Source: Bacteroidales bacterium (lineage in GTDB: Bacteria > Bacteroidota > Bacteroidia > Bacteroidales > WCHB1-69). Taken from it: a stretch of DNA of 64,000 nucleotides. Below, piece after piece: positions 4,167-53,000 of the stretch (within the stretch, counting starts at the first letter, position 1; each line of letters begins with the position of its first letter). The translations under genes and the position numbers were made by a program. The notes under the pieces were generated by a model. It saw nothing but the letters and a program-made list of their open reading frames with translations. It was not told where the DNA came from and did no database searches. The DNA is taken from assembly GCA_038240835.1 (NCBI GenBank), contig JBBRGJ010000001.1, positions 3,776 to 67,775 of the forward strand, given 5' to 3'.

Positions 4167-4169
4167 ATA

Positions 4170-4676
4170 AGTATTGTTATTTCTTAATTCTGTCTTCTTG
4201 CATTTTTCTTCTTCCTTTGTGAAACTTTGTGCCTCCTTTGTCTACCTAGTATAATGGTAGATAAATGTTACTTCGTGGCACAGCATAAAGTTTTTATTAG
4301 TTGCACTTTTGGCTTCTTTTTTGTCACAAAAATCGATTGCTTCGCCTCAATTTTTCCGCCAAAAAATACAATTTATTTTCCATCTCTGGACCCGGGCGTT
4401 GCCCGAGCCTTATATAAGCTGGGCACTTCGACTTAGCTCAGCACACCGCTTTCAGCCCGTTTATCCTTCACTAGGGGACTAATTTGCCCCACTGTCCCGA
4501 TAATTATCAAGAGCAGTAAAGTTTCTAATTATAAAAGACTTCATATTTCTTACTTCTATATTCTATATTCTTGCTTCTTCTTTTTCAGTCTCGCTTCGCG
4601 CACTCATCACTCATCACTTCTTCTTCTTCAGTTTCACAACAAAAAATCATTTAACTAACATTTCAAAAAATTATTC
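4170..4676. repeat. modular intergenic repeat block A
   Basis: Contains ctttgtg-type module 4211-4240 and inverted hairpin module 4240-4266. Also a reverse-oriented cacttcgac..gctcag module near 4424-4446, cttacttct-type runs 4541-4580 and tctcgcttcgcg/catcactcatcac 4588-4618. Confidence 0.8.
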
Positions 4677-4684
4677 TAAATTTG
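4677..4684 (+). promoter_or_regulatory. Bacteroidota -7 box TAAATTTG upstream of wtpA
   Basis: Exact match to the TAnnTTTG consensus, 49 nt before ATG 4733. Confidence 0.45.
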
Positions 4685-7851: not shown

Positions 7852-7861
7852 TTTGAATGTA

Positions 7862-8232
7862 CTTGATTTCTTATATTCTTGTTACTTCGTTTCACCACTA
7901 AGGCACTTAGAGCACTTAGGAACATTTATCTAACAGCTTGCTGGTAGACTAAGACTTCTGACTTCTTTCTTCTCTTCTTCTTCTTCTTCCTTTGTGAAAC
8001 TTTGTGCCTTCTTTGTGTTACTTCGTGTTATAGCATAAACCTTTCAGCTGGGACACAAAAGACACAAAGAATACACAAAAGACACAAAGAAGATTTATCT
8101 AACAGCTTGCTAGGAAGACTAAGTTCACTAAGAATCATTTATCTACCAGCTTGCTGGTAGACTAAGACTTCTTAATTCTTACTTCTGTATTCCCTCTTCT
8201 TTTCACGTTTCACGGAAAATCGTTTCACTTTC
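7862..8232. repeat. modular intergenic repeat block B
   Basis: Three copies of atttatcta(a/c)cagcttgct(a/g)g(g/t)a(a/g)gactaag (7924-7953, 8093-8123, 8137-8166). Also the ctttgtg/cacaaag hairpin 7986-8092, cttaattcttacttctgtattc 8167-8192 and ttttcacgtttcacggaaaatcgtttcac 8200-8228. Confidence 0.85.
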
Positions 8233-9447: not shown

Positions 9448-10231
9448 TAGAGATATAAGCTATCTTCGGATATCTGTAACCGACCGATGCAATTTGCGGT
9501 GTACATACTGCATGCCCGAAGAGGGGATGAAACTGTTGTCGCACAATGATATACTTACGTTCGAAGAGATTGTGGAAATTGTTGAGGTAGGTGTGAAATT
9601 GGGAATTTCAAAAGTTAGAATTACGGGGGGCGAACCCTTGGTGAGAAAAGGAATTGTAGATTTGGTTTCCAAAATTGCTCAAATCGATGGAATCGAAGAT
9701 TTATCCATGACAACCAATGGGATTTTGTTGAAACAATTTGCCGCCGACCTGAAAAAAGCGGGCCTGCATCGCTTAAATATTAGTTTGGATACATTGGATG
9801 CCAATAAATATAGCGAAATTTCCCGTGGAGGAAAATTAAGCGAAGCATTGGAAGGAATTATGGAGGCTAAAAAGATTGGATTTTCGCCCATCAAAATCAA
9901 CTGTGTGATTGTTGAAAATGCGCAAGAACCCGATGCAATCGCGGTAAAAGAGTTTTCCGAAAAACATGGTTTTTTTGTGCGTTATATTCACCAGATGAAT
10001 TTAAATACAGGTGAATTTTCTGTCGTCGAAGGGGGCGATGGAGGTAATTGTATTAACTGCAGCCGCTTAAGATTAACTGCCAATGGAGATTTAAAACCTT
10101 GCCTTTTCAACGATATTTCGTTTAATGTGCACGAGTTTGGAATTGAAGAAGCTTATAAATTGGCCATCGAGAAGAAACCAAAGTGTGGAACTTACAATAA
10201 TACTGGAGAATTTTATAACATAGGAGGTTAA
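9431..10231 (+). CDS. moaA: GTP 3',8-cyclase MoaA, compact 266-aa form
   Basis: Radical-SAM CNLRCTYC, second cluster CxxCx13C (CINCSRLRLTANGDLKPC) and a C-terminal GG. Overlaps moeA by 17 nt. Confidence 0.85.
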   Translation: MLDKFNRDISYLRISVTDRCNLRCTYCMPEEGMKLLSHNDILTFEEIVEIVEVGVKLGISKVRITGGEPLVRKGIVDLVSKIAQIDGIEDLSMTTNGILLKQFAADLKKAGLHRLNISLDTLDANKYSEISRGGKLSEALEGIMEAKKIGFSPIKINCVIVENAQEPDAIAVKEFSEKHGFFVRYIHQMNLNTGEFSVVEGGDGGNCINCSRLRLTANGDLKPCLFNDISFNVHEFGIEEAYKLAIEKKPKCGTYNNTGEFYNIGG

Positions 10232-16286: not shown

Positions 16287-16299
16287 ATTCAAGTTCAAC

Positions 16300-16625
16300 A
16301 CTGAGACATTTATCTACCAGCTTGCTAGGTAGATTTATCTAACAGCTTGCTGGTAGACTAAGATTTCTGTATTTTTCTTCCTTTGTGAAACTTTGTGAAA
16401 CTTTGTGTCTTCTTTGTGTCACTTTGTGTAATAGCATAAACTTTTCAGCTATGCCACAAAATACACAAAGAAGGCACAAAAGACACAAAGACCACTTTTT
16501 TCTTACTTCTTACTTTTTATTTCTTATTATTTCTTACTTCATTTCACGTTTCACTTTTCACGTTTTGTTCACTGAGCCTGTCGAAGTGCACCTTCTTCTT
16601 CTTCTTCCTCTTCCTCACTTCTATT
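16300..16625. repeat. modular intergenic repeat block F
   Basis: Hairpin module copies 16308-16332 and 16333-16362. Also the ctttgtg/cacaaag hairpin 16377-16494, cttactt runs, ttcacg runs and tcactgagcctgtcgaagtgcac 16569-16591. Confidence 0.85.
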
Positions 16626-16661
16626 TTAATGTTAATATTTCAACCTAAACACATTTTTTCG

Positions 16662-16669
16662 TAAATTTG
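16662..16669 (+). promoter_or_regulatory. -7 box TAAATTTG upstream of topB
   Basis: TAnnTTTG match 20 nt before ATG 16689. Confidence 0.45.
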
Positions 16670-16688
16670 TCAAAATTGAAAGTCTATA

Positions 16689-19001: not shown

Positions 19002-19860
19002 CAATTGAACGCGGATTTTTTTGGGGAATAGAGATAGCAGAGAACGCGGATGACGCGGATTTCTTATGATGAACGCGGATTTCTTTTTTTGGATGTTTGA
19101 GGATTTTTAGATAGCAATTGAACGCGGATGACGCTGATTTCTTATGATTAACGCGGATTTTTTTTTGAATGGGCACAAGTTGATCAAAGGTTCTTCGCTA
19201 TTTTGGTGTTTGCCTGCACTCAGATAATCAGATCACTATTTCGCCACTAAGCCATTTATCTACCAGCTTGCGAGGTAGACCAAGATTACTTAAGTTTTTT
19301 TGTCACACTCATTCTCCGCGGCGAAGTGAAGTGTCTCCACCCAAGGCTCTTCTTTATTCTTAATTCTGTATTCTTACTTCTTTCTTTCTTCTCCTTCTTC
19401 TTTTCACCTTTCACGGAAAACCGTTTCACCTTCTTATTTCTTACTTCTGTATTCTTTCTTCTTTCTTCTTCGTTTCACTCCCGATAGGGTTCAGGGTTCA
19501 TGGTGCAGGGTTCAGGGTTTGGTTTTAGTTCTACTTTATTACACGTTCTTCTTGTTTATTGAATTCTTCCTTCCTCTTCTTCTTCTTCTTCATTTCACCT
19601 TTGGTCACTGAGCCTGTCGAAGTGCACTTTTCACGTTTTACCACTAAGGCATTTATCTACCAGCATGCTAGGTAGACTAAGAACACTAAGATTCATTTAT
19701 CTACCAGCCTGCTAGGTAGACTAAGATTTCTTTTCTTCTGTATTCTTTCTTCTTTTTCTTTTTGTCACACTGAGCCTGTCGAAGTGCACCTCCCACCCTT
19801 TGGTCACTGAGCCTGTCGAAGTGCACCTTTCACCTTTCACCTTTCACCCTTCCTCTTTCC
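18996..19860. repeat. modular intergenic repeat block G (865 bp, between convergent topB and the M14 gene)
   Basis: aacgcggat units 18996-19166; hairpin module at 19254-19284, 19651-19681 and 19695-19725. gtcac(ac)tgagcctgtcgaagtgcac at 19604-19627, 19764-19789 and 19803-19826. Also tcagggt heptads 19487-19517 and ttcac / cttactt runs. Confidence 0.85.
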
Positions 19861-22899: not shown

Positions 22900-22924
22900 G
22901 ATCTTAAAATTAAAATTATTTCAA

Positions 22925-22932
22925 CAAAGATA
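22925..22932 (-). promoter_or_regulatory. -7 box TATCTTTG (minus strand) upstream of the AAA ATPase gene
   Basis: The reverse complement of caaagata matches TAnnTTTG, about 25 nt before ATG 22899. Confidence 0.4.
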
Positions 22933-22972
22933 CTAAATTGTATGATATAAAATACAAATTTAGACAAAAAAT

Positions 22973-23024
22973 GTATTCTGTAAAATACAATTTGTTCTGT
23001 TTTTTGTATTCTGTAAAATACAAT
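22973..23024. repeat. two exact 19-bp direct repeats gtattctgtaaaatacaat, 33 bp apart
   Basis: 22973-22991 and 23006-23024. Each has an internal gtatt..aatac dyad. They lie 75-125 bp upstream of the ATPase start. Confidence 0.8.
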
Positions 23025-23111
23025 CTGTAAATATCAATTCAATAATACTCTAAAATTGGAACCAAAACAAGCCAAAAGATGTCGGGCCCGAAGAGGGGAG
23101 GCGGGGGCGGA

Positions 23112-23207
23112 GTCTGTAAAGTCGAAAGTCTATCAAGTAAAAAGTTTGTAAAGTAAAAAGTCTATCAAGTAGAAAGTTTATAAAGTAGAAAGTCTATAAA
23201 GGAAATA
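23112..23207 (+). repeat. tandem repeat: six 16-bp units (three 32-bp units)
   Basis: gtctgtaaagtcgaaa gtctatcaagtaaaaa gtttgtaaagtaaaaa gtctatcaagtagaaa gtttataaagtagaaa gtctataaaggaaata. Confidence 0.85.
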
Positions 23208-24001
23208 GCCATCAACAGCCATTAGAGATGGCCGATCATAAAGTTAGTAGAGATTTTTTACCAATTTAAAAAAAATACCAAATCATGAAAAGCACCCTCA
23301 GAGCCACACTCTATAGACTTTAAGGACTTTACAGCCTTTCCACTTTAGGTTTTACTACCATTTGAGTGGAAGAGAGCACAAATATCAAAATTGTTATTTA
23401 AAAAATGTCATGCTGAGATTTCATCCAATAAAAATTTGGAAATAAAGGGTTGATGACAGTGAGAAAATTTACCGCTATTTGGGGCTTAGAATAAGCATTG
23501 TGGCTGTTTTAGCGAGCGTCATACTGTCACGATAGCTATCGTGATAGTCGAAGTATTAAAGAAAGAGGTTTATGAAAGCACTTTTTACAGTCCTTCGATT
23601 AACTCAGGAAGACCAGAAAAAGCAACATTCCAATTCTGTCATTGGTAGTTTATCGAAGTCGACATAGTGAGAATATGAAGAAGAATAATAACCGCAGAGC
23701 TCGCTGAGAGAAGGAAAAAAGTTGAGGACGCAGAGGCGCGAAGCGTGGAAAAGAAGAAAAGGAATACAGAATTAAGAATACAGAAGTAAGAAATCTAAGT
23801 CTACCTAGCAAGCTGGTAGATAAATGTCTTAGTGGTGTCTTTCCTTCTCTTCTCTTTTGTACCTTTTGCTACTTTTGTGGTTCAAAAAAAAAACAAAAAG
23901 CGCGAAGCGCCACCGGAAAACCCCAGCATCGCTTCGCGCCCTTTATAAACTTTACAGACTTTATAGACTTTAAGAACTTTCCACTTTAAGGACTTTATTC
24001 C
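23208..24001. repeat. modular intergenic repeat block H (rest of the 1.1-kb ORF-free region)
   Basis: Reverse-oriented modules: ctatagactttaaggactttacag 23311-23334, gaatacagaagtaag 23761-23793, hairpin module 23795-23825 and ctttataaactttacagactttatagactttaag 23941-23975. Also gtcat(g/a)ctg variants at 23407 and 23519. Confidence 0.8.
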
Positions 24002-24628
24002 CTAAAAAAGCACTCCCACACGAACTCCAACAAATTGGTATAGAACTCTGGTTTCTTGATTTGTGGTTAATGTTTTGAATTCAAAATTAAGATCATCAGA
24101 CCATTTTAGTGAGCTCTCTTGCAATTTATATTCAAAAGAGATAACTCCAGCAGCAGATTTAGAAAACATTACTTTCAATCCCAGTCCGCCTGCAAAAAAT
24201 AGTCCTTCGGTCGCACCTTCAATCACCAAATTTTTTGGATCTGGAATTGGCGACTCGTACCATTTGCTCGAATATCCAAAATCGGCACTGATGAATGGTG
24301 AGTAACGACCATATAAGAGATTCGCTCTTAAATCAGCATATAATGGGATAAACGAAGTTCGTTTCCATTTTTCAAAACCTACGCCCATACCCAACGAAAA
24401 ATAAGGATTAAATTGATATCCAACTACTTGGTGCAACGATACGGCCGTGTTCAAATTGGTCATCGTGGTGTTTTCAGCATAACTGATCTCGTTAAATCCA
24501 TTCGCAAAACTAAACGATGAAATATAAATCACCCCACGTTCTTTAAAATCATCCATCTGCTGAGCCTGCATATTCGCAGAAAACCCCATCATAATGACAA
24601 AAACTAAAATAGTATATTTCTTTAGCAT
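24002..24628 (-). CDS. outer-membrane beta-barrel (porin-family) protein
   Basis: Signal peptide, alternating beta-strand pattern, C-terminal VGVRVGVLF. Confidence 0.65.
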   Translation of the reverse strand: MLKKYTILVFVIMMGFSANMQAQQMDDFKERGVIYISSFSFANGFNEISYAENTTMTNLNTAVSLHQVVGYQFNPYFSLGMGVGFEKWKRTSFIPLYADLRANLLYGRYSPFISADFGYSSKWYESPIPDPKNLVIEGATEGLFFAGGLGLKVMFSKSAAGVISFEYKLQESSLKWSDDLNFEFKTLTTNQETRVLYQFVGVRVGVLF

Positions 24629-24835
24629 AAGTATATTTTTTTACAAAAGTACGTTATTTTTTATCAGCTTCTGAAGTGTATGTGCTTTTTTATATATCTC
24701 CAATTTAATAAAAGTTCCTAATCTTCTATGGTATTGATTAAAGATTTTTCATGATAACCTTCTTTAGAATTCCCTTTATTAGAATGTAAATACCTAATCT
24801 GTTTATTTTTTTTTGTTTAAAGTGTTTTATTTTTG

Positions 24836-24843
24836 TATCTTTG
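24836..24843 (+). promoter_or_regulatory. -7 box TATCTTTG upstream of the T9SS cargo gene
   Basis: TAnnTTTG match 27 nt before ATG 24870. Confidence 0.45.
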
Positions 24844-24869
24844 TGTACTTATTTTAAAAATTTCATGTT

Positions 24870-26849
24870 ATGAAAAAAATATTACAATTATTGTCTATTT
24901 TTCCAATATTGTCTCTTTTCCTATTATTTAACGGTTCTGATATAATTGCTCAAACTACGAAGATTCAGCCAGTTCAATGTGGCTATTTGATGCCGGAAAT
25001 AAAAACCACAATTAAAGCTATTGCCGTCACAGGAGCTACTGGTTACAGATTTCGAGTGAGTGATGGAGATACATATTTAGAAATCATTGATAAAACTGTA
25101 AATAATTTTAAGTTAACACAACTGTTGACTGCGCCCAAATACAATACATCTTACATTATTGATGTGGCTGTTAAAACAACAGGAAGTTACGGCAGTTACG
25201 GAGAAGCATGTATTTTGACAACTCCTTCTGCTCCCCTTACAAAAATTCAAGAAAGTCAATGTGGAATAACTCTTTCGGATATAAATACCTTCGTTTATGC
25301 CGATGCAATGTGGTATATCGACATGTACCGATTTAAAATAGATGATGGTGTAAATCCGCCTCAAACTTATGAAACTACAGGACGGACATTTAAATTTCCA
25401 TTTTTCCCCTCCTTTGAATATAACACAACTTACAGTGTCTCAGTTGCGTTAAAAGCTGGTGGCATTTGGGGCTCTTATGGCCCAGTTTGTTCGGTGAAAA
25501 CTCCTTGTCAGAATTTAAAAGTATTTGCAGATACTGATGGTGATACCTTTGGAGATCTATCTAATTTTATTATTTCTTGTAATGGTGTTCCCGAAGGTTA
25601 CGTCCTCGATTCTTTAGATTGTGATGACGCAGATATGACAATTTATCCAGGTGCTCCTGAAATTTGTGGTGATGGAAAAGACAATAATTGCAATAATCAA
25701 ATTGATGAGTCAGGTTGTTCTGTTATTACCACTTTAACTGAAGATGTTTGTGGTTCAACTTTTGAGTTTTTAAATACTACTTGGATTACAGCAAATCCGG
25801 TTGAAGGAGCTGAACAATATGAATTTAAAATAACTGCAGGGGCGTATGAAGCAACTGCCTTTGATGATTTGCAAGCGACCAAAGCTCGATTCCCTCAATT
25901 TCTCGATTATCAATATAATACAACTTATGATGTTCAGGTTCGTGTTAAATTCAATGGTGTTTGGGGCGCATATTCTGTCCCTTGCTCAATTACTACTACT
26001 GATCATCCTTATACCAACATTGAATCACCTACCTGCAATTCTACATTGCCATTAATAACTACATACATTTATGCAAAAACGGTATCTGATGTTACGGCAT
26101 ATCGATTTAAAGTTAATGATGGAGTTCATTCAGAAGAGGTGTTAGAGAAAACGGTTAGAACATTTAATATTCCAATGTTAGCTAATTGGAATTATGGAGA
26201 AACTTATCAGATCTCTGTAGCCGTTAAATTTAGAGATGTTTGGTATCCATACGAAAATATTTGTCAATTATCATCTCCTACTGTTCCAACTCCAGTAGTG
26301 CAAACGAGTCAATGTAATTCTATATTAGCAAAACCTTCTACTACTATTAAATCAACTTTAATAACTGGTGCAACGGATTATAGATTTGAAATTAGCTTTG
26401 GTGATTCTACCCAAATTGTGGATAAATCTATTAATGAGTTCAAACTCACAGAGAAAGCAACTGCGCCCAGAAATGGTGTTGTATACACAATTAGAGTTGC
26501 CGCAAAAGTTTTCAATGTTTGGGGCGATTTTGGGAGTGCCTGTAGCGTTACTACTCCTGGCGCCAAAAACGAAGCTTTAACCGTTGTTGAAAATGAAAAA
26601 CACGAACTGTCTGCTATCGTTTCACCAAACCCTTCTAGTGATAAATTTACGATTTCGATTAATTCAGATATTTCAGGAAGTGTAGACGTATTGGTTACAA
26701 ATATTCTTGGTCAGAAAATTGAAAGTTTTTATCTGACGGTTTCAGATTTGTCAAAACTAACCTTTGGTGCAAACTATGAAAAAGGAATATACTTAGTTAC
26801 CATTCGCCAAGGTGCACATAGAAAAGTATATAAAATAGTCAAACAATAG
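24870..26849 (+). CDS. T9SS-secreted protein with five ~88-aa Cys-bracketed repeats and a central MopE-like Cys/Asp-rich motif
   Basis: Signal peptide. Five repeats of the pattern C..(T/A)GAT.YRF..DG...YNT.Y.V.V..K..G.WG.YG..C..TTP. Central DTDGDTFGD..DCDDAD..YPGAPEICGDGKDNNCNNQIDE. C-terminal Por sorting domain (VSPNPSSDKFTI...GIYLVTI..KIVKQ). Confidence 0.8.
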   Translation: MKKILQLLSIFPILSLFLLFNGSDIIAQTTKIQPVQCGYLMPEIKTTIKAIAVTGATGYRFRVSDGDTYLEIIDKTVNNFKLTQLLTAPKYNTSYIIDVAVKTTGSYGSYGEACILTTPSAPLTKIQESQCGITLSDINTFVYADAMWYIDMYRFKIDDGVNPPQTYETTGRTFKFPFFPSFEYNTTYSVSVALKAGGIWGSYGPVCSVKTPCQNLKVFADTDGDTFGDLSNFIISCNGVPEGYVLDSLDCDDADMTIYPGAPEICGDGKDNNCNNQIDESGCSVITTLTEDVCGSTFEFLNTTWITANPVEGAEQYEFKITAGAYEATAFDDLQATKARFPQFLDYQYNTTYDVQVRVKFNGVWGAYSVPCSITTTDHPYTNIESPTCNSTLPLITTYIYAKTVSDVTAYRFKVNDGVHSEEVLEKTVRTFNIPMLANWNYGETYQISVAVKFRDVWYPYENICQLSSPTVPTPVVQTSQCNSILAKPSTTIKSTLITGATDYRFEISFGDSTQIVDKSINEFKLTEKATAPRNGVVYTIRVAAKVFNVWGDFGSACSVTTPGAKNEALTVVENEKHELSAIVSPNPSSDKFTISINSDISGSVDVLVTNILGQKIESFYLTVSDLSKLTFGANYEKGIYLVTIRQGAHRKVYKIVKQ

Positions 26850-26898
26850 TTTAGGGCATGAAAAAGGAGGTAGATACCTCCTTTTTCATGCCCTAAAC
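26849..26898. terminator. 24-bp perfect inverted repeat between convergent genes (probable bidirectional terminator)
   Basis: gtttagggcatgaaaaaggaggta / tacctcctttttcatgccctaaac with a 2-nt centre. It starts in the last base of the stop codon of the T9SS cargo gene. Confidence 0.6.
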
Positions 26899-26932
26899 TA
26901 CATGGATTTCCTGAATAAAATCTCGAATTCCT

Positions 26933-28030
26933 CTATTTTTTTGAAATAATAGTATTGTAAATATTGGAGTATTCATGAGCAATTACTTTCCAATCATGAT
27001 TCACCATAATTTTCTTAAATGCATTTTCGGAAAGTTGTTTTAGTTTTTCATCATCGCCTATGACTGTTTTGATTTTAGAAGCTAAATCATCCGAATTTCC
27101 ACTTTCAAAATATAATACTTCTGTTTCGTCAAAAACATATACATTTTCTATGATATTACTCGCAATGATAGGGGTTTTAAGGGATGCAGTTTCAAGTAGC
27201 ATATTAGACATGCCTTCGTTTAATGATGGAAATATAAACAGTTTTGCATTGCAAATTATTTTAAACAACTCCTCTTTTTCGGTTATTAACCCTAAATAAT
27301 CAAGGTTCAGTCCGATTGATTTTTTTAAAATTAACTCCTTATAGCCTGAAATATGATCTAAAGAGCCTACAATTTTAACTTTCCCTTTATATTCAATTTT
27401 ATGTAAAGCATCTAACAAAAGATGAAGTCCTTTTAATCCAATAATTCTACTTGCCGAAAAACAGATGTAATCTTCTACACGTTTGTTTTTAAGAAGATCA
27501 GGATAGATATATACTCCATTCGGAATGTAAATAATCTCTTTTTTGCAAACAGTATTCAAATATTGAATGTGTGGTTTACAGACTGATACTGTTATGTTTG
27601 AAAATTTCAAAGCAATGTATTCGAATGCTCTAAAAAATATTTTGTCTAATTTATTCCATTTGTTGTCATTTTTCGGAATTATCCCTCTTACTGTATTAAT
27701 GACTGGATATTTTATTCTTAAAAATGGTATAATAAATCCTGCATATATATGTTGAACATGAATTACATCATAATTTGCCATAAAAAGACAATGAAACATT
27801 GATTTGATATAATACGATAGAGTGTCTAATCTTTTTATTGGAAAGGCTTTTAAGGTAATTTGATTTATTCCATGATAATTTCCACTTAGGTTTGTATGCG
27901 AAGAAACCGAATATACTGTAATGTTAAAATCGTCTTTTAATTCTAACATCATCGATTCGGTAGCTCTTGCACCTCCACCGTAACCAGGAAGACCCTTAAC
28001 TCCAATTACTGCAATTTTCTTTTTAATCAT
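26933..28030 (-). CDS. glycosyltransferase, GT4/GT1 fold with DUF1972-like N-terminus
   Basis: KIAVIGVKGLPGYGGGA N-terminus. EGMSNMLLETASLKTPIIAS (the E-x7-E region). Confidence 0.7.
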   Translation of the reverse strand: MIKKKIAVIGVKGLPGYGGGARATESMMLELKDDFNITVYSVSSHTNLSGNYHGINQITLKAFPIKRLDTLSYYIKSMFHCLFMANYDVIHVQHIYAGFIIPFLRIKYPVINTVRGIIPKNDNKWNKLDKIFFRAFEYIALKFSNITVSVCKPHIQYLNTVCKKEIIYIPNGVYIYPDLLKNKRVEDYICFSASRIIGLKGLHLLLDALHKIEYKGKVKIVGSLDHISGYKELILKKSIGLNLDYLGLITEKEELFKIICNAKLFIFPSLNEGMSNMLLETASLKTPIIASNIIENVYVFDETEVLYFESGNSDDLASKIKTVIGDDEKLKQLSENAFKKIMVNHDWKVIAHEYSNIYNTIISKK

Positions 28031-29096
28031 CTATTAAAATTTCCGTGTAATTGTTTTTTAAAGCTGTTGCTGAATACTCGTTCCTTAGCAAATCTATTGA
28101 ATTATTACTGAACTTTTGATACATTTCGGGATTTGAAATAACATTTAAAATTGATGTTGCAATTTGAGTTGAATCCCCAATTTTTGAAGTAAATCCATTA
28201 AAATTGTCTACCACTAACTTGCTGCTATCGCCAGCTGTTGTTGCAATGATGGGGAGCTTGAAACTCATCGCTTCCATAATGGTATTAGACATACCTTCAA
28301 AAATAGAAGTAGATATGTAAAGATCAGCTTTTATATACTCTTCATTAGTATTTGCCAACTGACCATCCACTATTTTAATATATTCAGACAATCCGAATTC
28401 AATGATTTTCTCTAAAATTGTTTTGTAAAGTGGCCCATATCCAACAATAGTTAATTCAAACTGATCAAATTTTAATCTATTTTTTAATTTATCAATGGAT
28501 TCAATGAGCGTATTATATCCTTTTTCTTCTACAAATCGGCCAACAGTTAAAAACTTAAAAAATTGAGTATGTTCGATGGATCGATTGATTAAAAGATTTT
28601 TATCAGGGATCAAAATCCCATTAGGGATAACGAATATGTTTTTTTCTTTGAACCCATATCCAATATATTTTGTTTTTGCAAAATAGCTATTTGATATAAA
28701 TTTTATATTTAAACAATTACAAATACACTTCATCGCAATCATTTTATGGAATGATTTAGACTTAGGTCCTCTAATTCCACAAAGAATGTTTTTTGTGCCA
28801 ACAATTTTTCCAACTACTGAACCTAATATGTTGTTGCTTGGCAAATAGCAAATTAAATTTTTCGCTTTTGCTCTCTTCAAAATAAGGAATAATGAAATCA
28901 ATTTATTGATAAAACAACCTTTTAAGAAAACGATATTGTCAATTTCTTTATACGAAATATGGTTGTTGCTTTTTGAGTTTTGATGATGAACTACAACTAA
29001 TGTTTTTCGCTCTTTTTGTAACTCTTTAGCCAAAATTAATGATTGCTTTTCTGCACCACCTTTCGTCAATGATCTTATGTAGATGATTGTGTTCAT
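28023..29096 (-). CDS. glycosyltransferase family 4
   Basis: GGAEKQ N-terminal motif and EGMSNTIMEAMSFKLPIIAT. Overlaps both neighbours by 4-8 nt. Confidence 0.75.
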   Translation of the reverse strand: MNTIIYIRSLTKGGAEKQSLILAKELQKERKTLVVVHHQNSKSNNHISYKEIDNIVFLKGCFINKLISLFLILKRAKAKNLICYLPSNNILGSVVGKIVGTKNILCGIRGPKSKSFHKMIAMKCICNCLNIKFISNSYFAKTKYIGYGFKEKNIFVIPNGILIPDKNLLINRSIEHTQFFKFLTVGRFVEEKGYNTLIESIDKLKNRLKFDQFELTIVGYGPLYKTILEKIIEFGLSEYIKIVDGQLANTNEEYIKADLYISTSIFEGMSNTIMEAMSFKLPIIATTAGDSSKLVVDNFNGFTSKIGDSTQIATSILNVISNPEMYQKFSNNSIDLLRNEYSATALKNNYTEILIDD

Positions 29097-29653
29097 TTAT
29101 CAACAAAATCTAAGATTATTTTCTTTCGGTCTTGTTTTGATGTCCCTGTTGGAATTATGACACTTTTTGACAAACAATCTTCTTTGTATTGTTCTATGTT
29201 TTTTATTGGCTTGGCTGGAATTCCAATTGCCACTGAATTGTCGGGGATGTCCTTTGTGACAATACTCCCACTGCCTATCACAACATTGTTTCCAATATTT
29301 GTATTTGGCATTATGATTACATTAGAGCCAATAAAGACATTATTACCAATAGTTATCCTCCCAAAAATATTTAACCCAGGGAACTGATTTCTAAGAACAA
29401 AAACTCCTCCGTCGTGTGTGTGAAAAACTACATCTTGCGTAATTGTAACGTTATCACCAATAGAGATTAAATATGCTTCACTTCCCCATCTTGGAAATCC
29501 AGTGATTCGTACATTTTTGCCGAATTTTATTTTGTGATAATAGGCGCAGACTCTATATTTTCGGGTGTTTGACGACAAGGACATCAGTAGCAAGTAAATT
29601 ATTCTATTTAATTTTTTCATGTATTTTATGATAGTAGTTGTTATATTGACCAA
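29093..29653 (-). CDS. hexapeptide-repeat (LbH) O-acetyltransferase
   Basis: Repeated [LIV]G-x4 hexapeptides (IGNNVFIGSNVIIMPNTNIGNNVVIGSGSIV). The true start may be the internal ATG near 29620. Confidence 0.75.
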   Translation of the reverse strand: MVNITTTIIKYMKKLNRIIYLLLMSLSSNTRKYRVCAYYHKIKFGKNVRITGFPRWGSEAYLISIGDNVTITQDVVFHTHDGGVFVLRNQFPGLNIFGRITIGNNVFIGSNVIIMPNTNIGNNVVIGSGSIVTKDIPDNSVAIGIPAKPIKNIEQYKEDCLSKSVIIPTGTSKQDRKKIILDFVDK

Positions 29654-30887
29654 GGGTCATTCCTAATAGAAAAAAGCCAAATATTCTAAACGTAATTGCA
29701 TTTAATCCCCCAGAGAAGGACATGGCTATTATACTAAAAAAGGAAGAGACGAAAAGATAATTTAAATGTACAAGATTTCGATTTGATATTCTTCGCCTGA
29801 CTCTTTTTTTGAAAAATAGAAATTTTGAAAAAACCTTTAAATAAAATAGAGCATATAAAATTATTCCAACTAGTCCGCTACTGAAAAAGATAATGTTTAT
29901 ATCTACATGCAAGGGTCTGTCTCCAAATTCTCCGTTGCCATAATTCTCAACCGAGTTAAAAGGCTTCTCTCCAAAAAAAAGCAACTTTAATGATTTCTGT
30001 TCGAAACGCTCTTCCCATAAATTAATAGATTCTTTCAGCCTTGATTCCTCATTTAAACCTTTGTCAAATGTTTTAGTTCTTGCGTCAAATTGTTTGTCAA
30101 ACAATGAGTTAAATTCAGGAAGAACAAAAATGACGGCAATGCCAATTATGATAATAAATCTAATAGATTGAACACCTATCCTGTAAAAAAGAATTATTCC
30201 AATTCCTGAAATGCCCAAAATCACATATGCTGAACGCCTGAATGCGATGATAATAATACCTACAACTAAAAAAGTTAACACGATAAATAGTAGCTTTTGC
30301 TTTTTTATTAGAATTAAGGCCATGCTTATGGTAATAGTTAGACTTGGGATATACCACATGTTTGAAACAATTCCTCCAGTATAAAACCCTACTTCTTCAG
30401 AGTATCCAGCCCATCCGAGTTTGAAGATGTTTGAAATTATGATGTTGACAAGAGTGATGATCAACAGAGAAAAAGCCATCTCCTTGAATTTGATGAGATT
30501 AAAATTATTACGACTAAAATAAGTGTAAAATGCATAAAAACTATAAATAATCAGAATGAATTTAATAGTTTCAGTGATGCCTTTAATGTTTTGGAACTCA
30601 AAAATTGTCGATATACTTAAGATAGAAATCAATAAAATAAAATAAATATAGGCTGGTTTATTTTGAAAAGAAATTGATTTTGAACTTCTCCTGAGTTTGA
30701 AGTAGAAGAAGATTATAATAAAAAATCTAATTAAATTTAATATCAAAGTACTTGATGAATCTATCGAATAGAACACTAAATCGTAAATATAGTTGAAAGG
30801 AAGGAACATATATACTGCTTTGTGTGTGTCTTTTGTTAAGACATACAAAAAGTAAATACAAAGTATAATGATTATTGCAATTTGCAT
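29604..30887 (-). CDS. O-antigen/EPS polymerase (Wzy-like) multi-pass membrane protein
   Basis: 427 aa, about 10-12 TM helices plus one larger loop. Its position next to Wzx is typical of Wzy. Confidence 0.6.
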   Translation of the reverse strand: MQIAIIIILCIYFLYVLTKDTHKAVYMFLPFNYIYDLVFYSIDSSSTLILNLIRFFIIIFFYFKLRRSSKSISFQNKPAYIYFILLISILSISTIFEFQNIKGITETIKFILIIYSFYAFYTYFSRNNFNLIKFKEMAFSLLIITLVNIIISNIFKLGWAGYSEEVGFYTGGIVSNMWYIPSLTITISMALILIKKQKLLFIVLTFLVVGIIIIAFRRSAYVILGISGIGIILFYRIGVQSIRFIIIIGIAVIFVLPEFNSLFDKQFDARTKTFDKGLNEESRLKESINLWEERFEQKSLKLLFFGEKPFNSVENYGNGEFGDRPLHVDINIIFFSSGLVGIILYALFYLKVFSKFLFFKKRVRRRISNRNLVHLNYLFVSSFFSIIAMSFSGGLNAITFRIFGFFLLGMTLGQYNNYYHKIHEKIK

Positions 30888-31879
30888 TAAATGTCGTTTT
30901 TTGGGACGATGTCTAAGATCTGAATATTTTTATTGCGAAAAATTTGATAGACTTCTAAAATGTCTTTGTTCGTGACGAATTTTTGTAAATCTATTGAAAT
31001 AATTTCAATATTATCTGGCAGTATCTCTTTTAGTGTTACTAAAGCAGATGAGTAAAAAGAGAGTACTATTTTTGGAGAAATCAAGTTGTCTGTTAAATAT
31101 AGTTCAAGAGGAATTGAAATGGGGCCTTTTGTGATGGAGAAGTTTTCCGGATATTTTATTTTATTTACAGATAGTTCCCATCTATGAGGAATATATTCGA
31201 TTGTCGAATTACTATAATATTGACCTATTATTTTAAAAAAATAATTAATTTCTTCCTCTGTAAATAATTTTGCCTCAAGCAACGGCTGACCAATAAAAAT
31301 TATTTTTTCACCCAAAGTTGATTTCTGAATCGACTTAAGATATGAGAAGTTATTCTTTAAAAAAATGTGAGAAGTTGGACTTGATTCAGGTGTCCTTAAA
31401 AACGAGAATGAGGTAACGCTATTATTGTTTGTCAGATAGTCAAAATCTAATCCTTTAGAACTTAATCCGTCATCTAATAATATGATCTCTTTGTTTGAAA
31501 CAGAGTTTGTGATTTTATGGAAATCTTTGTAATTTGGATCACCTATAATAATTGAATTATGTTTCTTTAGAAGGGCCTCTATTCTCTTTTGTTGAATTTT
31601 TTGCTGAATTATTGCGCCAATTTTAATTGGTATTTTTAATAATAAATGGTCTCTTAAGATAATCTGTTTCCCAAATAATGAGATGATGTTAGAATTGAAT
31701 ATTTTGATTCTTTTATACGATTTGATATTCAAATAATTAAAAGAATTGGTCATCTGGATGTTTGAGAAATTGTATTTCTCAAAGTAAATAAAATCAATTT
31801 TATCCAATGAAATATTCATCGAAAATGCATATTCTACAGCACAGATCAATTGCAAGGGGGTTTTAATTATTGCGATCAT
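30887..31879 (-). CDS. putative nonulosonic-acid (sialyl-type) transferase, GT52-like
   Basis: From my recollection of GT52 (LsgB/Lst type): N-terminal KTPLQ, LLDDG, FIGQPLLE, YIPHR and SFYSSALVTL line up with CTPLQ, FDDG, FIGQPLL, YFPHP and FFSSVAFNL. It sits next to the CMP-sugar pathway. Confidence 0.45.
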   Translation of the reverse strand: MIAIIKTPLQLICAVEYAFSMNISLDKIDFIYFEKYNFSNIQMTNSFNYLNIKSYKRIKIFNSNIISLFGKQIILRDHLLLKIPIKIGAIIQQKIQQKRIEALLKKHNSIIIGDPNYKDFHKITNSVSNKEIILLDDGLSSKGLDFDYLTNNNSVTSFSFLRTPESSPTSHIFLKNNFSYLKSIQKSTLGEKIIFIGQPLLEAKLFTEEEINYFFKIIGQYYSNSTIEYIPHRWELSVNKIKYPENFSITKGPISIPLELYLTDNLISPKIVLSFYSSALVTLKEILPDNIEIISIDLQKFVTNKDILEVYQIFRNKNIQILDIVPKNDI

Positions 31880-33137
31880 TTAATGTTTTAATTAGTAAGT
31901 AATATGCAAGAATTGATGTGATTACAAATCCAATTAAAGTGCCCACTGATACAGCTGTTAATGGTGAGAAAAAAGGCAAACAGATAATTGGAAAAACAAA
32001 CATTAAAATTACTTTTAATATACTATATATTGAAACCGCTTTTTTATTTCCAATGCTGTAAAAAATATTGATACATATAGTATTTGTATTTATTACGCCA
32101 CTTATTAAAAACAACTGTGTAGCAAGAGTTCCTTCAATATATTTTGGGAAATACAGCTCTATAGCCCAAGGAATAAAAAAGATAGAAAATATAATAGTGG
32201 GGATTAATAAGATAATAGAAGCTAGGTATATTTTGTTCACATACGGAATGAGTATCTTTTTGTCTTGATGCTTCCCATATAAATAGGAGAACTTGGGGTA
32301 TAAAAATTGAGATATCGTACCAGGCAAAAAAGCAATTGCAGTGAAAACTGCTGTAGCTGGGGAAAATAGTCCAACTAAATACACCGACCCAATAGCGAGC
32401 AAAATCATTCGATTAAACGTTTTTGTTACTTGTTGAAGATATCCCCATGCGAATATAGGAACACCGACTTTCATTAATTTACGAAATGACTCTTTTGAAA
32501 AATTGGCTTTTAATTTAAATGGACGAAATATGTGAGTTAAAATTAAAAAAATAAACGCGTTCGAAAAGTAGAAAATTAATAGTCCATTATAGTTGAAAAA
32601 ATAGACAAATGATAAACTTAAAATCATGAAAAATGAAGATACATGATTTATTTTAGACAAAGTGTCAAAACTTTTAGATGTTCTATACGTGACATTTAAA
32701 TAGTTCTGGTAAAAGCTAAATGAAATTAAAAAGACGATTACAAGAAGCATCTTAATCTCATGTTCGCCCATTTTTCCAAAGAAATAGATGAGAAGAGTGA
32801 TTATTAATCCTAATATAAGAGTTCCACTACTTAATGCTTTTGCATATGATATTCCTGTTTTTACTAATTCTTTTGCTTCATTTTCTTTGTTCTGTCCAAA
32901 TAAAAAAGGAATTTCTCTGTTTAAGCCGGTAAAAACTCCTAGTTGTAAGAAAAATGTATATGCTATCAATACATTGAATGAGTTGTAAATGCCAATTTCA
33001 TTTGGAGATACCCATTTTAGAATAATCACATTTGTAACCGCTAAAATAAGTGTTTTAATAAAACTAGATAAGGCAAAATTAAAAAAAACCGTCTTTTCCT
33101 TGGTTAGTTTTATTTTAGATAAAAAAGCGTATTGCAT
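31863..33137 (-). CDS. wzx: oligosaccharide flippase (Wzx / MOP superfamily)
   Basis: 424 aa, about 12 TM helices, typical polysaccharide-biosynthesis-protein topology and context. Confidence 0.7.
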   Translation of the reverse strand: MQYAFLSKIKLTKEKTVFFNFALSSFIKTLILAVTNVIILKWVSPNEIGIYNSFNVLIAYTFFLQLGVFTGLNREIPFLFGQNKENEAKELVKTGISYAKALSSGTLILGLIITLLIYFFGKMGEHEIKMLLVIVFLISFSFYQNYLNVTYRTSKSFDTLSKINHVSSFFMILSLSFVYFFNYNGLLIFYFSNAFIFLILTHIFRPFKLKANFSKESFRKLMKVGVPIFAWGYLQQVTKTFNRMILLAIGSVYLVGLFSPATAVFTAIAFLPGTISQFLYPKFSYLYGKHQDKKILIPYVNKIYLASIILLIPTIIFSIFFIPWAIELYFPKYIEGTLATQLFLISGVINTNTICINIFYSIGNKKAVSIYSILKVILMFVFPIICLPFFSPLTAVSVGTLIGFVITSILAYYLLIKTLNDRNN

Positions 33138-33142
33138 TTTAG

Positions 33143-33826
33143 CTATGATTTATTTTTGAGAATTAATTCGCACAAATCCCAATCAATTTCTGTGTCAATA
33201 TCGAGAGAATCAATTTCTGACATGAAATATTTTTTAATTTTCTTAAATTCTGTCATAGAGCCTTTTTTTAATGATTTTACATTTATAATGTAAATAGCAC
33301 CATTTAATTCCCATACTTTTGGACAATCTTGCCTTCTAATAAAATTGCCTTTTTTAGTCTTTCTCAAAAAACCATGTTCATTTTCTTCATATAAGACAAA
33401 ATATGGATTTGATTTAGTCTCTTTAACGGATACAACCATGTCGATATTGTCAGTATATAATTCTAGAGATTCTTTAATGTGAAACGATGTTCGAAATGGT
33501 GATGTTGGTTGTAGTAAAATAATCGTGTCAGGGACGAACCCTTTTTCTTCAACTTCTTTTAATGCATGAATTAAAACATCGTGTGTGGATGAGTTGTCTT
33601 GAGAAATATCTGAGGGTCTAATAAATGGGACAGTTAGCCCAGTTTGTTCGACAATTTTTTTGATATTCAAATCATCCGTTGATACTATTATTTGGTCGTC
33701 AGTAAATAATTCTCTAGCAGCGGCAATTGTGTAGTGAATTAATGGGATTTTATTTAGCAATCTGATGTTTTTACCAGGAACTCCTTTAGAACCGCCTCTG
33801 GCAGGAATTATAACTAATGGCTTCAT
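33143..33826 (-). CDS. neuA: CMP-nonulosonic acid synthetase (acylneuraminate cytidylyltransferase, NeuA/LegF type)
   Basis: IIPARGGSKGVPGKNI N-terminal cytidylyltransferase motif; 227 aa. Confidence 0.85.
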   Translation of the reverse strand: MKPLVIIPARGGSKGVPGKNIRLLNKIPLIHYTIAAARELFTDDQIIVSTDDLNIKKIVEQTGLTVPFIRPSDISQDNSSTHDVLIHALKEVEEKGFVPDTIILLQPTSPFRTSFHIKESLELYTDNIDMVVSVKETKSNPYFVLYEENEHGFLRKTKKGNFIRRQDCPKVWELNGAIYIINVKSLKKGSMTEFKKIKKYFMSEIDSLDIDTEIDWDLCELILKNKS

Positions 33827-34872
33827 TATAATTGAATGTTTAATATATCTTCTTGTGCTTTTGCAAAATCCTCAGGTTTGCCAATATCTAACCAGTAGCC
33901 TAAATGTGGATAGGAGGTGACTTTTTTCCCCATTTTAATTAATGTTTCCATAAAATCTGTGGAGTTAAACTCTTTTTGGATGGGGATATGTTCTAAAAGT
34001 TCTCGTTTAAACAAATATATTCCTCCGTTTGCATAATAGGTGTATTGGGGCTTTTCTTTAAAGTCGGTAATGATTCCTTCATCGGTTTCCAATATAGCGT
34101 AAGGAACTTGAACGTGATACGGAATGGTTGCAACAGCTAAATCAGCTTGTTTGTTTATAAAATGAAGGAATAAATTTTCGTAATCTATGTTTGTGAGAAG
34201 ATCGGAATTGAGCACCATAATATAATCACTCAAGAAATTATGAATTAACGAAATGGATCCAATGGTTCCCAACGGTTCTTCCTCTGTAATATGATGAATT
34301 TTAATGTTTTTTTGGCTGCCATCTCCAACATGTTCGATAATTTGATCTCCTAAATATCTGGATGTAATCCAAATATTGTCGATTCCAAAAAGGCGCAATC
34401 GATCTATGTTGTGATCAATGATTGTTTTTGGACCAACTTTTAATAATGGTTTTGGCGTATGGTCTGTTAATGGTCTTAATCGTTCGCCTCTTCCACCGGC
34501 CATAATCACTGCATCGATGGGAAGATAAGATTTTATTTCACGAAAATTAATGACATTTACAACTTCATTCTTTTTATTAATAATTGGAATGATTCTGAAA
34601 TTTTGATTGCGGTATTCAATAACTTTAGCAAAATCACAATCTTCTTTTCGTAAATACCGTGGATTGGGTTGAATAATACAATCTACGATATCTTGAATGC
34701 TAAATCCTTTGAGTAAACCCCTACGTACATCACCATCGGTAAGCGATCCGATCAGTTTATTGTCCCCGTCAACAATGAAAATAATTGCATCTATGGCAAG
34801 CGAGTCTAGTCGCTCGAGTGCTTCTCTTATTGTACTTCCTGATGCCAATAAGTGTTTTCTAAATGTTTTCAC
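33826..34872 (-). CDS. CBS-pair + sugar-1-phosphate nucleotidyltransferase (PtmE-like)
   Basis: N-terminal CBS pair. MAGGRGERLRPLT..PKPLL nucleotidyltransferase motif. Confidence 0.75.
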   Translation of the reverse strand: MKTFRKHLLASGSTIREALERLDSLAIDAIIFIVDGDNKLIGSLTDGDVRRGLLKGFSIQDIVDCIIQPNPRYLRKEDCDFAKVIEYRNQNFRIIPIINKKNEVVNVINFREIKSYLPIDAVIMAGGRGERLRPLTDHTPKPLLKVGPKTIIDHNIDRLRLFGIDNIWITSRYLGDQIIEHVGDGSQKNIKIHHITEEEPLGTIGSISLIHNFLSDYIMVLNSDLLTNIDYENLFLHFINKQADLAVATIPYHVQVPYAILETDEGIITDFKEKPQYTYYANGGIYLFKRELLEHIPIQKEFNSTDFMETLIKMGKKVTSYPHLGYWLDIGKPEDFAKAQEDILNIQL

Positions 34873-47381: not shown

Positions 47382-47465
47382 CAACTTTAATTTCTTATAC
47401 GAAAGAGTGACTTTACATGTTGTCCCCAATTGTATGTTTAAAAGTGATTGAAATTAATCATTTTT

Positions 47466-47490
47466 TACATTTGCAAAATTTGTATATTTG
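47466..47490 (+). promoter_or_regulatory. two candidate -7 boxes (TACATTTG, TATATTTG) upstream of guaA
   Basis: Both match TAnnTTTG. The proximal one ends only 4 nt before ATG 47495, which would give a near-leaderless transcript. Confidence 0.4.
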
Positions 47491-47494
47491 CACC

Positions 47495-49024: not shown

Positions 49025-49345
49025 AGGATTCAGGGTGCAGGGTTTAGGGTTCAGGGTTTCAGGGTTCAAGGTTCAGGGTCAATGGTTTAAGGTTCATGGT
49101 GCAGGGTTTGGTTTTAGTTCTACTTTATTACACGTTCTTCTTATTTATTGTATTCTTTCTTTCACTTCTTGGTTTTGTCACACTGAACAAAGTGAAGTGT
49201 CTCTTCTTACTTCTTAATTCTTTCTTTCTTCTTTTCACGTTTCACTTTTCACAACTCAAAAACACAAAGTCCTCTATAAACTACTTCTTACTTCTTACTT
49301 CTGTATTCTTTCTTCTTCTCACTCGTCACTTCTTCTTTCATATTC
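49025..49345. repeat. modular intergenic repeat block L
   Basis: tcagggt-type heptads 49029-49110; a segment 49091-49160 near-identical to 19495-19570. Also gtcacactgaacaaagtgaagtgtctc 49177-49203 plus cttactt and ttcac runs. Confidence 0.85.
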
Positions 49346-49358
49346 ACATTTTAAAACT

Positions 49359-52550: not shown

Positions 52551-52639
52551 CTTTATCTATTTATTTAGATGCAAATATACATTTTATTTATCCTAAATGA
52601 ATTAATTGTAATTTAAAAAAACGAACTTAGCTAGAAGAA

Positions 52640-52925: not shown

Positions 52926-52992
52926 TACAAACAATGAACATTGCTTTGTTAGCAAAAAAAAACAAAATACAATATTGAAAAACAAAACACGT

Positions 52993-53000
52993 TAATTTTG
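52993..53000 (+). promoter_or_regulatory. -7 box TAATTTTG upstream of exbB
   Basis: TAnnTTTG match 29 nt before ATG 53029. Confidence 0.45.

Follow-up and report, generated by a model that had tools for sequence, protein, structure and literature searches.

What occupies a long gene-free gap in which one short repeat unit recurs in opposite orientations? The question is raised by a 1.1-kb spacer (positions 22900 to 24001, between a porin-like gene and an AAA_14 ATPase gene) in a 64-kb window of DNA from a Bacteroidales bacterium (assembly GCA_038240835.1, contig JBBRGJ010000001.1). The window is the whole stretch analyzed, it is the genome sequence examined for this organism, and all positions refer to it. 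An original prediction had described the spacer as a miniature inverted-repeat transposable element (MITE)-like or large structured element, with about 730 bp bracketed by inverted arrays. The inverted bracket is real and not random, but the 730 bp are not one element or one RNA. We read the spacer as a patchwork of hairpin repeat modules, composed of a gene-less foldback of the intervening-sequence type and a solitary arm in a 3' untranslated region (3' UTR) rather than of one element, and give this reading a probability of roughly 0.6. Judged by homology with arrays elsewhere, the three arrays in the window are arms of one widespread foldback family. In other genomes the family takes the form of short stand-alone intergenic hairpins, of brackets around IVP genes and of 23S rRNA intervening sequences.

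The three arrays are as follows:

23111-23206, plus strand: left arm, 11 units alternating between 9 and 7 nt, all ending in AAAG, or six 16-nt repeats
23309-23351, minus strand: internal arm, with CTTT units on the plus strand; the nearest partner of the left arm
23941-24001, minus strand: right arm, seven AAAG units of 7 or 9 nt, mostly 9 nt

Every unit ends in AAAG (the 9-nt TCTGTAAAG and the 7-nt TCGAAAG are examples), and the 16-nt period of the left arm arises because 9- and 7-nt units alternate. Tandem Repeats Finder reported 23111-23201 (period 16, 5.7 copies, 81% matches) and 23941-23998 (period 9/18). Allowing at most 1 mismatch, the pattern AGTCTRTAAAG was matched 17 times in the 64-kb window against 2.27 expected, a count reached in 0 of 100 shuffles; 11 of the 17 matches fell inside the spacer, six on the plus strand at 23111-23201, two on the minus strand at 23309-23337 and three on the minus strand at 23941-23969. 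Under a strict definition of an array (at least three consecutive 7- or 9-nt units, each ending in AAAG), the window contained exactly three, at 23113-23201 on the plus strand and at 23318-23351 and 23941-24001 on the minus strand, compared with 0.02 in shuffled sequence. All three approaches place inverted arrays where the original prediction had put them, including the six 16-bp units at the left edge. The complements at the internal site, which it had called exact, each carry one mismatch.

The arms are complementary termini able to form a long stem. For the outer pair (left and right arms), duplex energies of -43.0 / -45.6 kcal/mol were predicted (z -4.2 / -3.9), values equaled by 0 and 1 of 300 dinucleotide shuffles; the terminal arrays, as had been expected of them, pair better than shuffled controls. 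The left arm and the internal arm were predicted to pair at -30.7 and -39.0 kcal/mol, the -39.0 duplex with a z-score of -4.4, and across both arm pairs the z-scores span -2.4 to -4.4. The segment 23105-23355, which runs from the left through the internal arm, folds with z -2.7 on the plus strand and -4.3 on the minus strand. Folding of the whole 923 nt, a check that the original prediction had proposed, gave z -4.8 and -5.4 relative to only 20 shuffles, and the terminal arrays are paired in the predicted minimum-energy structures. Contiguous pairing of the arms reaches at most 13 to 14 bp because their periods differ (16 nt on the left, 9 nt on the right). The internal and right arms are direct-repeat paralogues with 80% identity. 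Positions 23111-23351 constitute a complete, gene-less family member with a loop of 116 nt, in which the left arm is the purine-rich 5' arm, and 23941-24001 is a solitary further arm.

Metagenome and viral contigs were searched for exact occurrences of a 22-nt pattern derived from the left arm, GTCTRTAAAGTNNAAAGTCTRT. It was found in at least 120 metagenome stretches, on contigs with a GC content of 27 to 57%, and had 0 matches in viral contigs; under the strict definition no arrays were found in about 560 kb of unrelated genomes. The left arm of the window aligned over its full length (91 nt) with metagenome arrays at 82 to 86% identity, with E values down to 2e-23. Among the matches listed, the 120 loci contained 207 arrays, and neighboring arrays on opposite strands faced inward (AAAG arm 5', CTTT arm 3') in 46 cases and outward in 10, the outward pairs being simply adjacent elements. 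The inward pairs enclosed loops of 7 to 44 nt (n = 27), 85 to 134 nt (n = 5, including the 116 nt of the window) or 345 to 557 nt (n = 14), and the short-loop copies are strong hairpins (z -4.7 to -9.3). By crude open reading frame (ORF) calls, 152 of the 163 elements among the matches listed were intergenic, often at most 10 nt from a stop codon. Their neighbors are ordinary housekeeping genes of 122 Pfam families in every orientation; no transposase was found among 94 genes flanking arrays, and no RAYT gene was seen adjoining arrays. Array GC content is about 30% regardless of that of the host. Some hairpins (L160, L203, L134) are nested in or adjoin other hairpin modules. By the same crude calling, about 11 of the 163 elements lie inside ORFs of at least 90 amino acids (aa); at L209, an array at 10074-10107 is apparently in frame in a 570-aa ORF, reading ..SVKSKVYKVYKE....

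What the long loops contain links the family to a known protein gene. Among the matches listed, 9 of the 14 long loops carried an intact ORF of about 115 aa belonging to PF05635 (23S_rRNA_IVP; Pfam E about 1e-34), 3 a copy disrupted by an in-frame stop or frameshift, and 2 no copy at all. The IVP ORF fills the loop almost exactly, as at L118, and has 27 to 39% GC in contigs of 28 to 50% GC. The left arm of the window is 81% identical over 91 nt to the arm beside the IVP gene of L125, and 80% identical to L098. An independent sample, queried by the protein and not by the array, comprised 29 named plasmid records, mostly from Nostocales and Riemerella and annotated "four helix bundle protein" or "S23 ribosomal protein," of which 8 were taken for analysis. 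Seven of these 8 IVP genes (Nostocales, Picosynechococcus, Geminocystis, Riemerella) are bracketed by inverted runs of short tandem units other than AAAG:

Nostoc and Geminocystis: unit GGGAAAA
Riemerella: unit AAGGTTC
Anabaena: unit GGTGACA
Calothrix: unit GGGTGTA
Picosynechococcus: unit GGAGATA
Nostoc C052: unit CAGGAGT

Predicted duplexes between the upstream and downstream flanks of the plasmid IVP genes ranged from -44 to -88 kcal/mol; those of 49 control genes from the window averaged -26 kcal/mol (standard deviation 6.8, minimum -40.9 kcal/mol). Several of these IVP genes lie within CRISPR-cas operons, in the arrangements cas6-IVP-cas4 and cmr2-IVP-cmr3 (L222, Anabaena sp. 90 pANA02; L225, Picosynechococcus PCC 7003; L226, Pseudanabaena galeata). 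They are flanked by tandem-repeat arrays, which in L226 stand in direct and not inverted orientation. IVP genes inside cas operons have been noted earlier, with the repeats unmentioned (PMC3936711). The protein is uncharacterized and is homologous to Avd, an accessory protein of diversity-generating retroelements (PMC10053308).

The same arms occur in rRNA operons. Comparison of loci with shared flanks identified the following copies in groundwater metagenome contigs:

L134, 7395-7484: AAAG hairpin in the 23S rRNA gene
L138, 1005-1078 and 2007-2089: two AAAG hairpins in the 23S rRNA gene
L210, 10132-10213: AAAG hairpin in the 23S rRNA gene
L204, 7506-7594: AAAG hairpin in the 23S-5S spacer

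The gene of L204 is uninterrupted at the position occupied in L134 and L138 and provides an empty site. The L134 hairpin is nested inside GC-rich arms of the GCTTCGC type, and the L138 23S gene has a group I intron in addition. Intervening sequences of 23S rRNA with a small ORF (IVP, S23p) have been known since the early 1990s. In the classical cases an extended stem-loop, complementary at its termini, takes the place of a small loop in an rRNA helix; the S23p ORF is sometimes in the loop, the GC content is below that of the host, the insertions are regarded as selfish, and their excision by RNase III has been shown experimentally (PMC4990558). Insertions in the rRNA of candidate-phyla bacteria contain the IVP domain as well (PMC11270868). 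From their sequence, the arms in the window are homologous to those of elements that sit in 23S rRNA genes or enclose an IVP ORF, and "gene-less derivative" is a fair loose description of them. With its rRNA insertions and their empty site, its low-GC passenger ORF and its presence or absence at the orthologous site in relatives (see below), the family appears to behave like selfish DNA.

If the arms are family members, what is the rest of the spacer? Its other parts are as follows:

23081-23110, plus strand: G-rich run adjoining the outer end of the left arm
23207-23308: loop enclosed by the local foldback, which measures 116 nt from one strictly defined array to the other, with small hairpins such as GCCATC..GATGGC
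23352-23736: locus-specific filler of about 385 nt, with only short ORFs and no match elsewhere in the sequence searched (none in 23367-23736)
23737-23880, minus strand: long imperfect hairpin with a purine-rich and a pyrimidine-rich arm, z -2.0 and -2.7
23883-23940, minus strand: intrinsic terminator of the 24628-24002 gene, found by a terminator scan

The approximately 590 bp between the internal and right arms thus consist of the terminator, mosaic modules typical of the lineage and unique filler. On the minus strand the order is stop codon, right arm, terminator, long hairpin, filler, internal arm, loop, left arm, G-rich run and promoter region of the AAA_14 gene. The right arm begins directly after the TAG stop codon (24002-24004), which puts it in the 3' UTR of the porin-like gene, transcriptionally upstream of the terminator. 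Stop codon read-through into the right array was considered, as 47 codons remain open in frame in the window, but was rejected because relatives have early stops. The terminator, 62 nt 3' of the stop codon, has a 10-bp GC-rich stem (23930-23939/23900-23909), a 20-nt loop and a T-run at 23883-23899 on the minus strand, and folds at -33.9 kcal/mol (z -6.8, minus strand); a stem-loop, a T-run and a place just past a gene, the marks of an intrinsic terminator, are all present. One of the two GC-rich islands pointed out in the original prediction, 23900-23939, is the stem of this terminator. The other, the G-rich run at 23081-23110, does not form a fold on either strand (z +1.4 for each) and was dismissed as a terminator or hairpin; G/C runs adjoin outer array ends in L096 and L130 as well.

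The modules of the 23737-23880 hairpin are common to at least five other spacers of the window and are, the arrays aside, the only part of the spacer so shared. A dispersed TCTACC..GGTAGA hairpin module (23800-23820) forms its tip and also occurs in three Bacteroidota metagenome-assembled genomes (MAGs); a scan of genome contigs with the module pattern returned 85 stretches, mostly by chance, with about 10 from three related Bacteroidota MAGs. Modules lying opposite to their usual orientation had been reported here, and positions 23750-23836 do match other window spacers in reverse. They are co-oriented with the minus-strand flanking genes, which across the window and relatives is only a tendency: a rule that modules keep their orientation relative to transcription was discarded, with about nine spacers consistent against four inconsistent, a difference that is not significant and depends on crude gene calls. 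Folded by itself, the loop 23207-23308 gave z -2.3. The filler includes an 18-bp perfect palindrome, TCACGATAGCTATCGTGA, at 23527-23544 (hairpin z -3.9). One ORF exceeds the limit of about 30 codons claimed for the spacer (53 codons, TTG start, 23650-23811, minus strand), although it matches no Pfam family. Searches of the window and of about 1.7 Mb of sequence from related and metagenomic loci matched the interior only in the internal arm (23309-23351) and at about 23737-23838. Rfam 15 returned no match at the gathering threshold for the whole window, and a relaxed search of the region gave a best score of 24.6 bits against a gathering threshold of 59; among 18 related loci with hairpins and cassettes, the Rfam search had no relevant match either.

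Syntenic contigs, located through homologues of the 208-aa product of the porin-like gene, reveal the state of the orthologous site in relatives, of which the closest named ones found are the Lentimicrobiaceae MAG CAZZHH01 (L041, L087), the Bacteroidota MAG ELA627 JBAXTE01 and the Bacteroidales MAG CAUVYH02. The identity of this protein to that of the window is given in brackets:

P0013 and P0017 contigs (52-56%): gene overlaps its convergent neighbor, spacer absent
L229 (70%): 71-nt spacer without arrays
L093 (69%): 63-nt spacer with a four-unit sense array
L094 (70%): 586-nt spacer bracketed by the same inverted arrays
L087 (79%): 609-nt spacer with sense-oriented arrays only; 300-aa gene missing
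Window: 300-aa gene replaced by the AAA_14 gene

In L087, L088, L093 and L094 the orthologous gene has arrays of AAAG units past its stop codon. The flanking genes of L094 and L093 share about 94.6% nucleotide identity; no fold is predicted for the 63-nt spacer of L093 (z +1.5). In L094 the far arm adjoins the stop codon of the convergent 300-aa gene and matches the left arm of the window over 45 nt at 89%, while its bracket encloses 481 nt unrelated to the interior of the window. L087, L088 and L089 encode one and the same protein, but an indel of about 90 nt (about 70 nt net) inside an array sets L088 and L089 apart from L087. The interiors of the window, L094 and L087 have nothing in common except an operator-like motif, so it is the arms that are kept, in changing arrangements, and the interior that is renewed. 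The search for an empty site has a mixed outcome: relatives differ piecemeal and not by one defined insertion (no arrays in L229, a short sense array in L093), and the most plausible view of the outer bracket in the window is that of a historical remnant and not of the two ends of one unit.

A side observation at this site concerns assembly. The Logan contig L001 (SRR19962012) is identical to window positions 23813-34628 (10.8 kb) and stops in the middle of the TCTACC module, and the L091 and L228 contigs end within tens of bases past the orthologous gene. Such spacers break short-read assemblies.

These observations bear on several other explanations. It is very unlikely that the outer arrays are the terminal inverted repeats of a single non-autonomous MITE of about 890 bp, inserted as a unit. 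Inverted outer arrays that pair better than shuffles (z about -4), a relative without arrays at the orthologous site (L229) and another with a bracket of the same arms (L094) would fit such an element. However, no target-site duplication was found, the sequences immediately outside the arms (..GGGGCGG on one side, CTAAAAAA.. on the other) sharing no direct repeat. No second copy of the interior, arrays and mosaic modules excepted, turned up in the window or the loci examined. L094 has unrelated sequence between its arms, and arms and interior change independently among L093, L094 and L087/L088; in several relatives the right arm, but nothing else of the supposed unit, follows the orthologous gene. 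The left arm has a nearer partner 116 nt away, the terminator of a host gene would lie inside the supposed element, and the inverted repeats are of low complexity and out of register. A large structured noncoding RNA, its ends held together by the arrays, is scarcely credible. The whole region does fold better than shuffles, with its terminal arrays paired, but the z-scores come from 20 shuffles, and the excess stability derives from local hairpins (terminator, palindrome, module hairpins). No Rfam family was matched, whether at the gathering or at a relaxed threshold, no relative conserves the interior or offers an orthologue that can be aligned with it, and on the strand of the flanking genes a strong terminator stands 60 nt into the putative RNA.

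An origin of the arrays as local slippage minisatellites without common ancestry, inverted by the accident of formerly convergent gene ends, can draw on the two arms of L094, each of which adjoins the stop codon of one of two convergent genes, on the variable unit numbers among relatives and on the many other short-repeat arrays in spacers of this genome. This reading is largely refuted by the 91-nt match at up to 86% identity, by the exact 22-nt pattern in at least 120 contigs, by the inward excess of 46 to 10, by the same arms inside rRNA genes and around IVP genes and by an array GC content independent of the host, and we regard it as highly improbable. Somewhat less remote, though still unlikely, is a role as iteron- or operator-like binding sites for a DNA- or RNA-binding protein, possibly the IVP itself, that regulate or insulate the flanking genes. 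In its favor, the spacing of the units is regular and their sequence is kept in widely differing hosts; several relatives retain arrays downstream of the orthologous gene; IVP genes lie between such arrays, and the protein is homologous to Avd, a nucleic-acid-handling accessory protein (PMC10053308). Yet unit number and order vary freely, even among strains, arrays are absent at this site in some relatives, and elsewhere they adjoin unrelated housekeeping genes in every orientation. IVP genes of other lineages are flanked by different units, which fits complementarity better than sequence-specific binding, and the window has no IVP gene. A replication origin or iterons were also rejected, as a rep or dnaA context and a GC-skew switch are absent and the arrays stand beside many unrelated genes.

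Among known systems, the AAAG family is closest in architecture to rRNA intervening sequences and closest in lifestyle to repetitive extragenic palindromic (REP) sequences, their REPIN doublets and bacterial interspersed mosaic elements (BIMEs), and to MITEs that bear short repeats. Like the 23S rRNA intervening sequences of Leptospira and Coxiella burnetii, it has a stem of complementary termini, a loop that is either short or filled by an ORF of about 115 aa for a four-helix bundle, a GC content below that of the host and a sporadic distribution, and some of its members are themselves inside 23S rRNA genes. Unlike those, the copy in the window lies in a spacer between protein genes without an IVP ORF, its arms consist of tandem units of 7 and 9 nt and not a unique 28-bp inverted repeat, and one arm is set apart by about 590 bp that include a terminator. 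With the REP, REPIN and BIME sequences of Enterobacteria and Pseudomonas the family shares short spacer hairpins, often just after stop codons, and mosaics with other modules. REP sequences flank RAYT transposase genes and have a fixed palindromic unit of about 35 bp. The inverted arrays around the small IVP gene resemble this arrangement, but the enclosed gene encodes a four-helix bundle with no known catalytic activity and the arms are tandem arrays of variable unit number. Pneumococcal BOX elements and the BrickBuilt elements of Porphyromonas gingivalis are MITEs with short repeats that, like the window arrays, are modular, intergenic and hairpin-forming and vary in the number of their short units; unlike MITEs, the region in the window has no target-site duplication, defined full-length unit or multicopy interior.

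The short tandemly repeated repetitive (STRR) sequences of cyanobacteria are tandem heptamer arrays in spacers, with several unit families per genome. The window likewise has 7-nt-scale tandem units in its spacers, among them the heptamer arrays AGGGTTC, TTTCACG and GTGACGA, and on Nostocales plasmids STRR-like heptamer arrays flank IVP genes in inverted orientation. STRR sequences differ in being described as tandem arrays, and the host of the window belongs to the Bacteroidota and not to the cyanobacteria. We found no description in the open-access literature of STRR sequences with paired inward-facing arms or an IVP link, nor of AAAG arrays or of a general wrapping of IVP genes in inverted tandem-repeat arms. 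It is conceivable, though we consider it a long shot, that inverted-run hairpins form one selfish class across phyla, comprising the AAAG family, the other foldbacks of this genome and cyanobacterial STRR-type arrays. The full-length form would then carry the IVP gene, whose product (perhaps with a host polymerase or reverse transcriptase) would make or spread the arrays; rRNA would be one landing site and the window a decayed footprint.

The patchwork reading suggests how such a family might persist. It would be selfish or near-neutral hairpin DNA that lands where it is harmless, in gene-free gaps, loops of rRNA helices and existing hairpins. Its arms may lengthen and shorten by slippage, which would be tolerated because both are runs of one unit and hence able to pair in any register. 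A transcript with both arms could form a long double-stranded stem, which RNase III may cut by analogy with classical rRNA intervening sequences, and such cutting would make insertions into operons and rRNA tolerable. In the window, the outer bracket would be a historical by-product and not a working pair; since the terminator separates the outer arms, they would rarely be on one transcript and are unlikely to act together.

Several points weigh against this account. Both RNase III processing of the array stems and insertion into hairpins are steps that we infer. The arms are out of register and pair contiguously over 13 to 14 bp at most, less than the stems of classical intervening sequences. 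No 23S_rRNA_IVP gene or decayed remnant was found in the interior of the window by tblastn or six-frame profile searches, which recovered the positive controls L096 and L183 and were negative for L094 and L203, as for the window. The same bracket in the window and L094 could mean that the outer pair itself is maintained. The loci were chosen by the array pattern, so frequencies such as the share with IVP genes are not population estimates. The description of the family as widespread across taxa draws on the GC range, the diversity of samples and divergent 23S genes only, and movement of the copy in the window itself was not seen within the 64 kb analyzed.

The immediate surroundings of the spacer can be summarized as follows:

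24628-24002, minus strand: upstream porin-like gene, 208 aa, signal peptide, C-terminal F, no Pfam match
22899-21703, minus strand: downstream AAA_14 ATPase gene, with an M14 peptidase gene 30 bp further on

The 208-aa protein is probably an outer-membrane beta-barrel; one of its homologues is named long-subunit fatty acid transport protein by JGI. A Por_Secre_tail domain (type IX secretion sorting) on a neighboring protein indicates a Bacteroidota source of the window, in which start codons are closely preceded by TAnnTTTG boxes. The AAA_14 gene was at the corresponding position in none of the relatives examined (L087, L093, L094, L229). Most of them have in its place the 300-aa gene, which is of an unknown family, is encoded on the other strand and diverges from the M14 peptidase gene; in L087 both the AAA_14 gene and the 300-aa gene are missing. 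Three copies of a palindromic 18-bp motif, TGTAT-N8-ATACA, lie immediately upstream of the AAA_14 gene (22939-22956, 22972-22989 and 23005-23022) and overlap TAnnTTTG boxes at 22925-22932 and 22955-22962 on the minus strand. The motif also occurs upstream of the M14 peptidase gene of L087 and within the spacer of L094, and it looks like a candidate operator. No tRNA or tmRNA was detected by a scan, and no rRNA genes were found within the 64-kb window.

Repeats are not confined to this spacer. All spacers of the window that exceed 300 bp are mosaics, filled by longer modules and short tandem units from a shared vocabulary (4167-4681, 7852-8232, 16287-16688, 19002-19860, 49025-49358, 52551-53028, 54925-55428 and 56704-57144), the units including CTTTGTG, TTTCACG, AGGGTTC, CTTCTTA, GTGACGA and TCGCTTCGCG. 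The relative ELA627 has the same vocabulary, including a tandemly repeated 240-bp composite (L028 1-480). Further foldbacks with inverted single-unit arms (CTTTGTG/CACAAAG; GTGACGR/YCGTCAC) share the architecture of the AAAG foldback:

7985-8095: foldback, z -6.3
16385-16495: foldback, z -7.5
52640-52745: foldback, z -4.0
55035-55295: foldback, z -3.3
56700-56985: foldback, z -4.0

A hairpin module of about 31 nt, ATTTATCTACCAGCTTGCTAGGTAGACTAAG, is present 10 times, at 7924, 8093, 8137, 16308, 16333, 19254, 19651 and 19695 on the plus strand and at 23825 and 4266 on the minus strand. It recurs at 90 to 98% identity in the Bacteroidota MAGs ELA627 and CAUVYH02 and in Lentimicrobiaceae CAZZHH01, and a bin labeled Cloacimonadota (L019, L063) has a related form behind heptamer arrays of TTCACAA. 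A composite of modules, 122 nt long, forms a 92%-identical direct repeat (55054-55175 / 56747-56868) flanking a 424-aa gene at 55429-56703. AGGGTTC/AGGGTTT heptamer arrays at 49025-49109 and 19486-19520, which begin directly at the stop codon of the gene 47417-49024, have a unit resembling the AAGGTTC arms around the Riemerella plasmid IVP gene (L221). The convergent genes 24870-26849 and 26933-28030 have between them a likely bidirectional terminator (26847-26900), an inverted repeat of 26 nt without mismatches around a loop of 2 nt.

Locally, the message is modest: the spacer is a noncoding patchwork with one terminator, neither a gene nor a single mobile unit. The interesting part is the link at the level of the family, which ties repeat arrays in spacers to IVP genes and rRNA intervening sequences, as arms of AAAG units are found in four settings: they form bare hairpins between genes, enclose IVP genes, lie in 23S rRNA genes or are split within a long spacer. 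If the reading holds, it would offer a testable model in which register-free stems, cleavable by RNase III, render insertions harmless in operons and rRNA, and it would account both for the breaks of short-read assemblies at such spacers and for the IVP genes inside cas operons.

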